Assembly (NCBI GenBank): GCA_038534155.1
Contig: JBCAXH010000006.1
Location: 50,829 to 114,828 of the forward strand
Length of the DNA stretch: 64,000 nt
Direction of reading: 5' to 3'
DNA from: Pseudomonadota bacterium
Lineage (GTDB): Bacteria > Pseudomonadota > Alphaproteobacteria > Rhodobacterales > Rhodobacteraceae
Notes under the pieces: generated by a model
What the model was told of the DNA's origin: nothing
Databases searched by the model: none
Seen by the model: the letters and a program-made list of their open reading frames with translations, nothing else
Shown here: one piece after another, positions 41,253-50,488 of the stretch
How the letters are laid out: the number at the start of each line of letters is the position of its first letter
Position numbering within the stretch: the first letter of the stretch is position 1
Made by a program: the position numbers and the translations under genes

Positions 41253-41343
41253 ACCTTACGGACGCGCTGCGCGCGGCTGCTTCATCTCGTCGTTGGGCTT
41301 CGCCCGCCTCCTCGGGTTGGGACGTCTCGGGGAGACGGTCTTC

Positions 41344-41377
41344 GCCTCCGGCGGGAGTATTTTTGGAAGAATGAAGG
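41344..41377 (-). repeat. Dispersed intergenic repeat, copy 3
   Basis: Minus strand CCTTCATTCTTCCAAAAATACTCCCGCCGGAGGC, beginning 2 nt after the ltaE stop codon. Confidence 0.65.
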
Positions 41378-45997: not shown

Positions 45998-47172
45998 GCC
46001 GCTTTGGCTTCCAGCGACGAGCAGGCGGCGTCGATCATGTCGACTGCCTGGTCGATCTCCTCCGCCGTGACGATCAGCGGGGGGAGGATGCGCACGACGT
46101 TGTCGCCCGCCGGCACGGTCAGAAGGCCCTGATCGTAGCAGGCGTTGAGGACGTCCATGTTCGGCGCTTTGCACTTCAGGCCGATCATCAGGCCTTCGCC
46201 GCGCTCCGCCTCCAGAATATCCGGATGGGCGTCGACGAGGGCGCCGAGCTTCTGCTTGAGACGCCCCGCCATGGCGCTGACATGGTCGAGGAAGCCTTCG
46301 GAGAGGATCTCGTCCACCACAGCGCAGCCGACCGCGGTCGCCAGCGGGTTGCCGCCATAGGTGCTCCCGTGCGTGCCAGCGACCATGCCGGAAGCGGCGC
46401 GTTCGGTGGCGAGGCAGGCGCCGAGGGGGAAGCCCCCGCCGATGCCCTTGGCGATCGCCATGATGTCCGGCTCGACCCCCGACCATTCATAGGCGAAGAA
46501 CTTGCCCGTCCGGCCCGCGCCCGATTGCACCTCGTCGCAGATCAGGAGCGCGCCCGTCTCGTCGCAGATCGCGCGGAGCTCCTTCATGAAGGCGGCCTCG
46601 ACCGGAATGATCCCGCCCTCGCCCTGCACGGGTTCGATGGAGATCGCGGCGGTCATCTCATTCACCGCCGCGCGCACCGCGTCGATGTCGAGCGGGACCT
46701 GGATGAAGCCGTCGACCAGCGGGCCGAAGCCCTTCACCAGCTTCTCCGACTTCGCCGAAGAGATCGTGGCGATGGTCCGGCCGTGGAAACAGCCCTGGAA
46801 GGTGATGATCTCCGTTCGCTCCGGCGCGCCGTTCTCATAGTGGAACTTCCTCGCCATCTTAAAGGCGCACTCCATCGCCTCCGCGCCCGAATTGGTGAAG
46901 AACATCGTATCGGCGAAAGTGGCGGCGGCCAGCTTCTCCGCCAGCGCCTCCTGATTGACGACGCGGTATAGGTTCGACGTGTGCCAGAGCTGGCCCGCCT
47001 GCTCCGTCAGCGCGGCGACCAGCTTGGGGTGCGCGTGACCGAGGCAGTTCACGGCGATGCCGGCGCCGAAATCGAGATGACGTCGGCCCGCTTCGTCAAT
47101 CAGCCAGCAGCCTTCGCCTTTAACGAACGCATGTTGCGTCCGCGCGTAAGTGGGCATGACGGGGGGTATCAT
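45994..47172 (-). CDS. argD: Acetylornithine aminotransferase
   Basis: [61 protein letters not shown]. Confidence 0.96.
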
Positions 47173-47396
47173 CTCTTACCTTTCTTCGCCGGGCGCTCGG
47201 CCCGTTTCGCTTGATGAAAGCGCCGTCTCGGCGCGTTCGCGTTATCGGCGAGGGGTCGGGGGCTGTCAAACCGAGGGAGTTGAAAACCGGAGCATGCGTC
47301 GACTTCTCCGCGTCGTCGTCTTGTTTCAGCCAGTGGGAGGCTTAAAATAGGGACTTCACGACAAGGGCGCGCACGCGCCGCCAAGCGGAGAAATTC

Positions 47397-47972
47397 ATGT
47401 CCTGGACCGACGAGCGCGTTGAAAAGCTGAAAGCGATGTGGGGCGAAGGGCAGAGCGCCAGCCAGATCGCGAAAGAGCTCGGCGGCGTCACCCGCAACGC
47501 GGTGATCGGCAAGGTTCATCGCCTCGGCCTCTCCAACCGCGCGTCCTCCAAACCCGCCGCGCCCGCCGCCGACGCCAAGCCCGCCAAACCGGCGGCGCCC
47601 AAGGCCGAAGCCGCTCCAGCGCCAAAGGCGGAACCGGCGACCCCGCCGAAGCCCGTCATTCAGTCCGCCACCGCCCGACGCGAACCCCCGCCGCCGACGC
47701 CCGCGATGCTGGAGGACCAGCAGCGCACCGCCGAAGCGCTCGCCGCGATCGAGAAAAAGGCGCGGAGGCTGAACCTTCTGGAGCTGACCGAGCGGACCTG
47801 CAAATGGCCCATCGGCGATCCGGCGACGGATGATTTCTACTTCTGCGGCCTGCCCTGCGCCCCCGGCAAACCCTATTGCGAGGCGCATGTGGCGGTCGCG
47901 TTCCAGCCTATGTCATCCCGCCGGGACCGCGACCGGAACCGCAGCCGGGGCATGAGCGGCGGCTTCCGCTGA
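47397..47972 (+). CDS. gcrA: GcrA cell-cycle regulator
   Basis: MSWTDERVEKLK.MW.EG.SASQIA..LGGVTRNAVIGKVHRLGL; C-terminal LTERTCKWPIGDP...DF.FCG...PYCEAH. Confidence 0.96.
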   Translation: MSWTDERVEKLKAMWGEGQSASQIAKELGGVTRNAVIGKVHRLGLSNRASSKPAAPAADAKPAKPAAPKAEAAPAPKAEPATPPKPVIQSATARREPPPPTPAMLEDQQRTAEALAAIEKKARRLNLLELTERTCKWPIGDPATDDFYFCGLPCAPGKPYCEAHVAVAFQPMSSRRDRDRNRSRGMSGGFR

Positions 47973-48041
47973 TCATCGGCCACGGCGCGTCGCGTGCGTA
48001 GATCGATGCGATGCGCTTAGCTTCTATTCGAGAGCCGTTCG

Positions 48042-48371
48042 CTACGACGCCGCCAGCTTCGGTCGCTTCGGCGACCGCGCCGCCTCAATGCCCGATTGCA
48101 GCGATGCGAGGGTCTTCAGCACCGCGCCGCCGTCGATGTAGAGGGCGACGCGGTGGCCCTTGCGTTTCGAAATGACCAGCTTCGCCGCCTTCATGGGGCG
48201 GAGGTGATGGGTGAGCGTCGATATGGTCAGACCGGTTCGCTCCAGTAACTCTTCGAAGCTGAGCCCTTTCGCGTCTCGCTGAAGCGTCTCCAGTATCGCG
48301 ACCCGGCGCGGGTGGGACAGAGCTGTCATCGCAGTCGCGGTCCAGATGCGTTTATCCGCTTCGCCATCCAT
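48042..48371 (-). CDS. ArsR/SmtB family HTH transcriptional regulator
   Basis: ALSHPRRVAILETL, STLTHHLR.M..A.LV...RKG....Y; start at ATG 48371 preferred (48392 possible). Confidence 0.8.
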   Translation of the reverse strand: MDGEADKRIWTATAMTALSHPRRVAILETLQRDAKGLSFEELLERTGLTISTLTHHLRPMKAAKLVISKRKGHRVALYIDGGAVLKTLASLQSGIEAARSPKRPKLAAS

Positions 48372-48436
48372 AACCTTCGTCTCCCGTATCAAATCAGTCG
48401 GGCGTGATTATCCATGCTTGCGGCTAACAAACAGTG

Positions 48437-48496
48437 AAGAAACATCAGGATTCCGGCATGCTAGAATTCTAGCATGCCGGAATCCTGATGTTTCTT
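48437..48496. repeat. Perfect 60-bp palindrome, no spacer
   Basis: AAGAAACATCAGGATTCCGGCATGCTAGAA|TTCTAGCATGCCGGAATCCTGATGTTTCTT; arms checked base by base. Confidence 0.97.
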
Positions 48497-48745
48497 AGGT
48501 AACCGTTAAGGGTTCAGTTCAGGTCCCGTGTGGGATGGAGAAGCGCGGCCCGCGCCTATCTGGCCGCGGTCCCGCCGCCGCTCTCCGATTGCGAGGCGAT
48601 GTCGGCGTTCGTCGAAGATGCGAGACTTGTCAGCGACGTCTTGGGAGACAGCCGGCCTCAGTCCACCGCGCGCGAAGTTGGCTAGCGGCCCTCGCCGCAT
48701 GCCGCGCCGATTTCTTTGTTTCGCGGACCGAGACGATCGCTTTCG

Positions 48746-49531
48746 TCAGGCCGCCTCGCTCACGGCATGGGGTCGGGTGAAGACCATCCGGGTCTCGTCA
48801 GATCCGTCCGCGCGGAACCGGTATCCGTCGATGTCGAACCCGCGCAGGTCGGCGGGGTCCTCGATCCGGTTCTCCACCGCGAAGCGGGCCATCGCGCCGC
48901 GGGCGCGTTTGGCGAAGAAGCTGATAGTCTTCGCTTCGCCGTCTCGTTCTTCGAGAAACACCGGCTCGATCACCGTCAGCTTCAGCGCCTTGCGATCGAC
49001 TGCGCCGAAATATTCCTGGCTCGCGCAGTTCAGAAGCGTCGTGGCCCCGACCGCCTTCGCTTGGCGGTTCAGCGCCTTGGCGATCCTGTCGCCCCACCAG
49101 TCGTAAAGCGACCGACCCCGCTCCGTCGCGAGCCGACTGCCCATCTCCAGCCGATAGGGCTGCATCCTGTCCATCGGGCGGAGGACGCCGTAAAGGCCGG
49201 AGAGGATGCGCAGGTGGTCCTGCGCGAACTCCATCGTCGCCTCGTCGAACTCGCGCGCCTGTAGCCCGGTATAGGTGTCGCCGTCGAAGGCGAGCGCGGC
49301 GGGCTTCACCACGTCATCGTTGGGGCGGGCCATGAAGGCGCGGAACCGCTCGGCGTTCAGCTTGGCGAGCGGCTCGCTGATGCTCATTAGGGAGCGAAGC
49401 TCGGATGCGGAAAGCTCCCGCGCGACCTTGGCGAGCTTGTTCGCTTCGGTCTTCAGCTCAGGCTCCGTCGCGCTGTCGAGCGGGACCGGGGACCAGTCGA
49501 GCTTCTTGGCGGGCGAGATGACCGTGAGCAT
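48746..49531 (-). CDS. yaaA: Peroxide stress protein YaaA
   Basis: MLTVISPAKKLD, LMSISE.LA.LN, F.GDTY, ILSGLYGVLRP.D..QPYRLEMG, LLNCASQEY, FAKRARG.MAR. Confidence 0.95.
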   Translation of the reverse strand: MLTVISPAKKLDWSPVPLDSATEPELKTEANKLAKVARELSASELRSLMSISEPLAKLNAERFRAFMARPNDDVVKPAALAFDGDTYTGLQAREFDEATMEFAQDHLRILSGLYGVLRPMDRMQPYRLEMGSRLATERGRSLYDWWGDRIAKALNRQAKAVGATTLLNCASQEYFGAVDRKALKLTVIEPVFLEERDGEAKTISFFAKRARGAMARFAVENRIEDPADLRGFDIDGYRFRADGSDETRMVFTRPHAVSEAA

Positions 49532-49639
49532 GTGCGAGGCTCCAATTGCAATGACCGTTGTTGGGACTGAAACTAGGGTCGGGCGGGCGCGTTGACCATA
49601 GCCCGCCGCCGCTTTGACCGCCCGGAAAAGGAGACCCCC

Positions 49640-50488
49640 ATGCTTTGCAAGATCGGCGATGTGGAGATCTGGCGCATCCTAGAGATCAACGCGCCATTCC
49701 TGACCCCGGAGGAGCTGTTTCCCCAGGCGGGGCCGGATGTACATGCGGTGTTTGACCAATATGGTCGAGCTCAGCTCGACGTCGCCAGCGGCCGTCTGAT
49801 CCTGCCGGTGCAGGGGTTTTTGTTGAAGACGCCGAAGCACCTCATCCTCGTCGACAGCTGCGTCGGCAATCACAAGACCAACGAAGGCACGCCCGCCTGG
49901 CATCAGCGAAACGACGACCGGTTCATGGCGGCGCTGAAGGCCGCCGGGGTCGGGCCGGACGACGTCGACTACGTCCTCTGCACCCATCTCCATCCCGATC
50001 ATATCGGCTGGAACACGCAGCTGGAGGATGGGCGCTGGGTTCCGACCTTCCCGAACGCCCGCTATCTGATGCCGGCGGCGGACGAGGCGATGCTGAGCGA
50101 TCTCGGCCATGTCATGCATGCCGAGAGCGTGGCGCCGGTCATCGCGGCGGGGCAGGCGGAGCTCGTCTCCGGCGAGCATGCGCTGGGGGACGAGGTGACG
50201 TTGGTTCCGACGCCGGGGCATTCGCCCGGTCATGTCTCCGTCCTGATCCGGTCAGCGGGGGCGGAGGCGGTGATCACGGGGGATGCGCTGCACACGACGG
50301 TGCAGTGTCGGCGCCCCGATTGGGAGTTCGTCTATGATCTCGACGGGGCGATGGCGGTCGCGTCCCGCAAGAGACTTCTGGAGGATGCGTCGGAAAGCGG
50401 TCGGCGCGTGCTCGGCAGCCATTTCTCCCTGCCTTCCATAGGCCGGGTGAAAGCGGACGGCGATGTCTTCAAGTGGGAGCCGGACTGA
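49640..50488 (+). CDS. MBL-fold metallo-hydrolase
   Basis: RBS AAGGAG, ATG 49640; LVDSCVG, CTHLHPDHIGWN (HxHxDH), TPGHSPGH, TGD.LH. Confidence 0.9.
   Translation: MLCKIGDVEIWRILEINAPFLTPEELFPQAGPDVHAVFDQYGRAQLDVASGRLILPVQGFLLKTPKHLILVDSCVGNHKTNEGTPAWHQRNDDRFMAALKAAGVGPDDVDYVLCTHLHPDHIGWNTQLEDGRWVPTFPNARYLMPAADEAMLSDLGHVMHAESVAPVIAAGQAELVSGEHALGDEVTLVPTPGHSPGHVSVLIRSAGAEAVITGDALHTTVQCRRPDWEFVYDLDGAMAVASRKRLLEDASESGRRVLGSHFSLPSIGRVKADGDVFKWEPD

Follow-up and report, generated by a model that had tools for sequence, protein, structure and literature searches.

What does a perfect 60-bp inverted repeat do, or record, in the gap in front of a small regulator gene? The question is raised by a palindrome at positions 48437–48496 of the window, by which we mean the whole 64,000-nt stretch of DNA analysed here (C6:50829–114828 of the genome of a marine alphaproteobacterium, 4.75 Mb in 58 contigs and 66% GC). 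The analyses presented here indicate that this palindrome belongs to a lineage-specific family of dyad-symmetric elements with a 'box–array–box' build, of which it is the copy at this locus. As the explanation that we favour with reasonable rather than high confidence, it is most likely a putative operator array of the ArsR/NolR-like protein whose gene starts 65 bp away.

Structure of the palindrome

The two arms (48437–48466 and 48467–48496) are each 30 nt long, are 100% complementary and meet with 0 nt of spacer; their outer parts read AAGAAACA and TGTTTCTT, as in elements of the alpha type (see below). The perfect, spacer-less palindrome that an earlier note on this DNA had described is therefore borne out, as are its positions for GATTC (48449–48453), GAATC (48480–48484) and TTAG-N7-TTAA (48495–48509) and its distance of 65 bp from the palindrome end to the ATG (at 48371) of the ArsR-type gene. 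The core of the element (48445–48488) is an array of five 8-bp units, TCAG-GATT-CCGG-CATG-CTAG-AATT-CTAG-CATG-CCGG-AATC-CTGA. The cores CCGG and CTAG and most of the linkers (AATT and CATG) are self-complementary tetranucleotides, and since the only asymmetric linkers, GATT and AATC, are placed symmetrically, either strand gives the same array sequence. On each side of the array follow an AAGAAA-type arm and a TTAA-N7-type box. The right box (TTAG-N7-TTAA, given above) is a conserved part of the family's alpha and beta ends; the left one, CTAA-N7-TGAA (48424–48438), is its mirror and lies between the array and the regulator gene. With the mirrored boxes the dyad-symmetric element covers at least 48424–48509, i.e. 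at least 86 bp. The GATTC site is intrinsic to the alpha unit GGATTCC, and the GAATC site is its mirror. Folded as single-stranded DNA, the region reaches –34.6 kcal/mol (z = –11.3). The palindrome is the fourth longest perfect palindrome in the genome, after those of 68, 64 and 62 bp; no further copy of either arm was found in the rest of the 64-kb window, and 100 shuffles gave no match.

The reality of the structure was assessed with Logan at the level of contigs and unitigs, as distinct from single spanning reads. In the probable source run a 7.1-kb contig ends exactly at 48466, a 12.9-kb contig begins at 48467 and a 45-nt unitig (48437–48481) bridges the centre, all three at 35–37×, the single-copy depth; this three-piece layout is the pattern expected of a true palindrome in a k=31 graph. 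A second, independent study (plastisphere metagenomes, two runs) contributed pieces covering 48316–48466 and 48452–48723, in which SNPs are confined to the flanks, the arms being free of them.

The neighbouring genes

The palindrome stands upstream of a minus-strand gene for a 109-aa, Cys-free winged-helix protein of the ArsR/SmtB family (HTH_20; 48042–48371, with an alternative TTG start at 48392), which we propose as the reader of the palindrome. On the other side yaaA, for a peroxide stress protein (48746–49531, minus strand), ends 250 bp before the element, and beyond yaaA lies a metallo-beta-lactamase-fold gene (49592–50488, plus strand); gcrA (47397–47972, plus strand) is a neighbour only. 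gcrA and yaaA are neighbours in the congener G005 as well. The interval between them (window 47973–48745) is a variable slot, which in G005 holds a gene for a 173-aa membrane protein; the ortholog of that gene lies at C7:70051–70569 in the present genome, and no remnant of it was found in the 250-bp gap.

A superfamily of tandem-unit palindromes

The earlier note had suggested a genome-wide search for other copies of the arm, which turned out not to be unique: relatives occur at dozens of loci, and the superfamily as a whole amounts to about 125 elements (96 array loci and 34 zeta loci, a few being counted in both). All 15 of the perfect palindromes of at least 40 bp in the genome belong to it. 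As judged by codon-usage gene calls the copies are strictly intergenic, none lying inside a gene. The shared build is a run of 2–10 tandem units of 8 bp, (YYRR-NATN)n, in which the cores are CCGG, CTAG or CCAG/CTGG and the linkers AATT, CATG, CATT/AATG, TATT/AATA, GATT/AATC or TTTT/AAAA.

The subtypes, with roughly 5–34 copies each genome-wide, are defined by their end modules. The alpha end reads TTAAC-N6-GTTAAGAAAnn next to CCAGGATTCCGG, the beta end TTAAC-N6-CCTAAATCCT next to CYAGTTTTCCGG, the gamma end TTCGATGATT next to CYAGTTTTCCGG (i.e. the unit of beta), and the delta end GTTAACGTTC next to CCAGAATCCCGGGATTC; epsilon is a small group, and zeta (34 loci) is a 2-unit type built on the 24-bp palindrome TGTCAGAAAWCCGGWTTTCTGACA. 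The zeta palindrome is often extended by GTTAACCCGA arms to perfect palindromes of 40–62 bp (for instance at C17:21038–21099 and C6:162785–162832). Most alpha copies have two or three units; the window copy is an alpha–alpha element with five, which makes its centre 16 bp longer than that of the usual 3-unit alpha element. End modules are also mixed, in a mosaic manner, in alpha–gamma and alpha–beta hybrids.

Copies resemble one another in their motifs only, with a mean column identity of 54% over 110 nt. In 21 aligned alpha copies the two arms co-vary at the variable linkers: there are 65 doubly changed cells vs 45.6 ± 5.4 in shuffles, none of 500 shuffles attained this level, and the scores of slid controls are much lower. 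Where the AAGAAA arm is linked to the array (alignment columns 43–47, paired with 88–92), the sequence varies between copies and is complementary within each. Such symmetry of the arms within a copy implies either a hairpin-dependent process of symmetrization or selection for the hairpin, and a protein-binding site alone is an insufficient explanation of the co-variation.

Array loci are spread like intergenic DNA in general, with 16 of 95 between convergent genes, the same as background. Zeta copies show a preference for divergent gaps (15 divergent, 17 tandem and 2 convergent). Beta and gamma ends have no orientation bias relative to gene starts, and no functional theme was found among the genes beside 39 alpha and zeta copies (rpsB, murG, purL, acnA, panB, putA, transporters and others).

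The ArsR-type protein and its subfamily

The window protein matches Pfam HTH_20 and HTH_5, and NCBIfam NF033788 at 42–56 bits against a cut-off of 55. Its AlphaFold model (pLDDT 91.7) has secondary-structure elements in the order H-H-H-H-E-E-H, in agreement with the winged helix–turn–helix order that defines the ArsR/SmtB fold (a1-a2-a3-aR-b1-b2-a5). The top Foldseek matches are SrnR, YgaV, NolR, CzrA and SmtB, and the closest solved structures in sequence comparison are those of YgaV (E = 6e-7) and NolR 4omy (E = 6.6e-6). None of the sensor residues looked for (the a3 CxC, the a5 His/Asp/Glu site and reactive Cys pairs) is present in the window protein, which has no Cys at all; a single Cys occurs in only one of the five paralogs of this genome (that at C49), and the C-terminal helix has no His cluster. 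Given the lack of both Cys and a C-terminal His cluster, the protein has no recognizable metal or thiol sensor.

The four other paralogs (45–57% identity) share with the window protein a nearly invariant signature, ALSHPRRV...STLxHHLRPMxAAxLV (its final part also as STLxHHLRPMxAAGLV), and the positions that vary between paralogs sit in and just before the recognition helix. In the ArsR superfamily, recognition-helix differences abolish cross-talk between operators (bioRxiv 10.64898/2026.05.15.721447). We infer that the invariant CCGG core and the variable 4-nt linkers of the arrays mirror the invariant and the variable residues of the helix.

The subfamily is rare. No member was found in 14 congeners, where the one weak match is an ordinary Cys-bearing ArsR protein, and none in 400 genomes sampled across the class; weak matches in G008 and G189, considered as possible members, were set aside as ordinary Cys-bearing ArsR proteins with other operators. 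A word-index search of 5.8 billion proteins gave 20 subfamily matches, and among 1.84 billion representatives about 25–45 clusters score above 90 bits.

Pairing of regulator genes with palindromic elements

Upstream of each of the five paralog genes stands a superfamily element, centred about 65–110 bp from the ATG and of a different subtype in every case: alpha at the window gene on C6, beta/gamma at C1:580478–580837, delta at C49:1120–1416, epsilon at C3:209030–209392 and zeta at C4:123476–123802. By comparison, only 2 of the 23 other HTH_5/HTH_20 genes have an element within 250 bp upstream (hypergeometric P of about 2e-4, by our own arithmetic). Downstream of the five paralogs no conserved sequence that might bound a cassette was found. 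At 240 bp from a beta-type element there is a 194-aa open frame with a weak HTH_20 match (C48:6486–6914 of the same genome, G000), which could be due to chance or could mark a sixth reader gene, more distant than the other five.

The same layout recurs outside this genome. Among the ten distinct metagenomic homologs that could be placed on contigs, nine have a CCGG-centred palindrome or an array of 8-bp period within about 150 bp upstream, in most cases then followed by a TTAA-N7-TTAG-like box; on the contig of the tenth (P0023) the box alone is visible, the contig being cut off there. Upstream of the closest homolog (57% identity) there is a 28-bp core of the alpha type; others have six or more tandem CCGGATAA units or a 44-bp five-unit palindrome, and TTTTTCCGGAAAAA stands upstream of two related homolog proteins. 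Many of these contigs begin or end inside the array, for one protein in three independent runs. More generally, short-read contigs (Logan and ENA) end exactly at the centre of, or inside, palindromic arrays, which leaves the loci fragmented and the gene family hidden in very short contigs; in practical terms, the palindromes break short-read assemblies exactly at their centres. These breaks probably explain why homologs are found mostly on very short contigs, and with it the apparent rarity of the family.

The outer box deserves a separate comment. The right box fits the CtrA box TTAA-N7-TTAA in 7 of 8 letters. Read as CTTAG-N9-AA it also fits, in all but the first base, the low-information NolR operator consensus (A/T)TTAG-N9-A(T/A) (PMC12445080).

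A putative operator array of the adjacent regulator

Taking the layout and the pairing together, we suggest that the Cys-free ArsR-type protein, as one dimer or several, would bind the dyad-symmetric array 65–110 bp before its own start codon and, so bound, repress or tune its own promoter. The predicted target may be the array, the TTAA-N7 box or both. The same autoregulation would operate at each of the four other paralogs through its own subtype, so that alpha, beta/gamma, delta, epsilon and zeta would be distributed across the five, and the subtype that each paralog reads would be set by recognition-helix residues that are predicted to contact bases and in which the paralogs differ. The other copies, about 120, would be solo sites that some copying process has spread through intergenic DNA, where they may act as extra operators or decoys or be neutral passengers. 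Additionally, the window hairpin with its T-rich tails may stop read-through from yaaA: on the minus strand the hairpin is followed by TTTCTTCAC and could also terminate the yaaA transcript.

Three sets of observations speak against the operator reading as it stands. Neither a shared theme of the neighbour genes nor a depletion of arrays between convergent genes was found, and this pattern looks more like selfish or neutral spread than like a regulon; moreover, the alpha–gamma and alpha–beta hybrids blur the pairing and so tell against a strict rule of one subtype for one paralog. The third is the co-variation of the arms, which a protein site by itself leaves unexplained. A broader and more tentative possibility, to which we give appreciably less than even chances, is a previously undescribed 'repeat plus reader' system, in which families of dispersed palindromic arrays would diversify together with dedicated ArsR-type paralogs that are non-catalytic, with one reader for each repeat subtype and five such pairs in this genome. 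The protein could keep its own repeat in check, silence it or help to copy it, and a hairpin-dependent process would keep the arms perfectly symmetric.

If the operator reading holds, one lineage would in recent times have acquired five regulators of the ArsR type and, with them, about 125 matching arrays of binding sites next to housekeeping and metabolic genes, and would represent a natural case of wholesale rewiring, or parasitizing, of intergenic DNA by a regulator–operator pair. Five protein–DNA pairs in one cell would also be a clean test set for the retuning of ArsR-family specificity through the recognition helix.

Alternative explanations

The number of the elements, their strictly intergenic position, their mosaic make-up with mixed end modules and the lack of a functional theme among their neighbours would all suit a purely selfish palindromic repeat of the REP or MITE kind with no dedicated protein partner, for which adjacency to ArsR-type genes would reflect co-mobilization or an insertion preference. 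The elements are, in addition, absent from all relatives searched, and at one locus (C29:25256) the empty orthologous site expected of a MITE is seen, six congeners with the same flanking genes having a gap that is 110–180 bp shorter and has no element. The other marks of a MITE were not found: we detected no autonomous parent element with these ends, whose pairing is restricted to elements of up to about 130 bp, and no conserved direct repeat flanking the copies as a target-site duplication. Nor does such a repeat explain the pairing of 5 of 5 paralogs with a subtype or the same layout at nine homologs elsewhere, and the copies are alike in their motifs only; together with the different repeat family that flanks the single Y1/RAYT gene (see below), this makes the selfish explanation an unlikely one, if one to be taken seriously. 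The role could instead lie mainly at the RNA level, in a bidirectional intrinsic terminator or a transcript-stabilizing hairpin between yaaA and the ArsR-type gene, which could coexist with the operator reading. The terminator scan agrees with this at the window palindrome, where a stem of at least 20 pairs is followed by TTTCTT on both strands, and so does the co-variation of the arms. It is nevertheless improbable as the main role: across the family neither the downstream sides of genes nor convergent gaps are enriched in elements, divergent gaps are favoured by zeta copies, beta and gamma ends have no T tract, and the pairing with regulator paralogs would be left unexplained.

The earlier note had also proposed a structural or regulatory site sensitive to the cell cycle. 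The regulatory part of this proposal, a site next to the ArsR-type gene, pointed in the right direction; its cell-cycle part, a site read by CtrA through the TTAA-N7-TTAA box and by CcrM and GcrA through the GANTC sites, is not supported and seems to us highly improbable. It draws on the consensus of the alpha and beta ends, in which two TTAA-like half-sites stand 11 bp apart, on the similar boxes after arrays upstream of homologs elsewhere, and on the two GANTC sites with gcrA in the neighbourhood. Across the family, however, GANTC is not conserved: both sites of the pair are symmetrically changed to GAATTC in 4 of the 21 aligned alpha copies (alpha2; pair 50/85), and GANTC is absent from the zeta core and ends and from the beta ends. 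A strict YTAR-N7-YTAR box occurs at only 22 of 154 ends, the box fits the low-information NolR consensus as well, the neighbour genes are not typical cell-cycle genes, and the relatives, which presumably have CtrA and CcrM as well, all lack the elements. The remaining suggestions of the note, namely a protelomerase (hairpin-telomere) target, a recombination or resolution site, a one-off template-switch scar and an assembly fold-back artefact, have in their favour only the size and perfection of the palindrome, and we give them hardly any credence. The protelomerase search that it had suggested gave no match to PF16684, the profile of the ResT/TelK catalytic domain, in a genome whose completeness is rated at 100%; the site lies inside the 178-kb contig C6, with two flanks that differ from each other and are partly syntenic; contigs of the source run and of the second study reach and cross the centre, the former meeting at 48466/48467 under the bridging unitig; and a one-off scar is at odds with about 125 related elements. 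That long perfect palindromes are 'usually unstable', as the note had put it, is an overstatement at 60 bp.

Comparison with known systems

The proposed operator array can be set beside three kinds of known system. With autoregulated ArsR/SmtB repressors (SmtB, CzrA and CadC, and the non-metal NolR, YgaV and HlyU) it shares a small winged-helix protein of the ArsR fold and a dyad-symmetric site 65–110 bp upstream of the protein's own gene. Classical operators of this family are 12-2-12 inverted repeats, and the 3-unit alpha core, a 28-bp 12-4-12 palindrome, comes near to that size. Unlike those repressors, the present proteins lack Cys/His sensor sites, the putative operator is an array of 8-bp period with 2–10 units and about 5–34 copies per subtype, and there are five paralogs of a rare subfamily, each with a matching subtype.

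Like REP/REPIN elements with their RAYT genes, and like the mosaic BIMEs of E. coli, the elements are intergenic palindromes, short, mosaic and lineage-specific, with copy numbers in the tens to hundreds, and one protein gene is physically paired with its own repeat type; in contrast to RAYTs, the paired gene encodes a non-catalytic DNA binder of the ArsR type and not a Y1 transposase. A link to RAYT was considered and rejected, since the only Y1_Tnp gene of the genome (C8:139831–140151) has other repeats in its flanks. The repeats in these flanks (C8:139600–140400) are those of another REP-like family, rich in GC, which has dozens of copies, some of them within the window (for instance at C6:92171–92197, window 41343–41369).

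The tandem, self-complementary 8-bp units in variable number also recall the metbox arrays of MetJ. Metboxes are tandem 8-bp palindromic boxes in 2–5 copies, and repressor dimers can tile DNA at 8-bp spacing. MetJ, however, is a ribbon–helix–helix protein, a kind not implicated here, and metboxes read AGACGTCT and are not dispersed as a repeat family.

Distribution outside this genome

The array pattern has 144 matches in this genome vs 0 in 40 relatives, 14 species of the same genus included, with 0 for the backwards control; the zeta core has 33 matches vs 0 in the same relatives. An Rfam search of 47000–50000 returned only sub-threshold mir-240 matches, which are hairpin look-alikes. Full-text literature searches for five core motifs gave no paper, and searches for mosaic repeats and for ArsR together with REP elements gave nothing that describes this system. 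In a scan of JGI metagenomes the 22-nt alpha core had 5 matches, none with alpha flanks or a homolog gene nearby.

A GTDB-wide scan with CCGGNATNCTAGNATNCCGG was likewise set aside: it returned 71 stretches, by rough arithmetic no more than expected by chance, and the recurrent matches belong to unrelated families. Among what it brought up is a dispersed repeat of the Bradyrhizobium type, GTCATTCCGGGGCG ... CCGGAATCCTAGGATTCCGG ... CCCCGGAATGAC, a separate family that has only the CCGG/CTAG core in common with the present one. Six Microvirga genomes share a 34-bp near-palindrome, CATGCCGGGATYCTAGRATCCCGGCATG, at one orthologous site next to a conserved gene start; it could be a single-copy operator. 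Finally, a contig of an uncultured Rhodobacterales bacterium (L038:250–420) carries CCGGAA/CCAGAA-type units in a row, with an exact CCGGAATTCTAGAATTCCGG in their midst, and this row may be a related array in another lineage.
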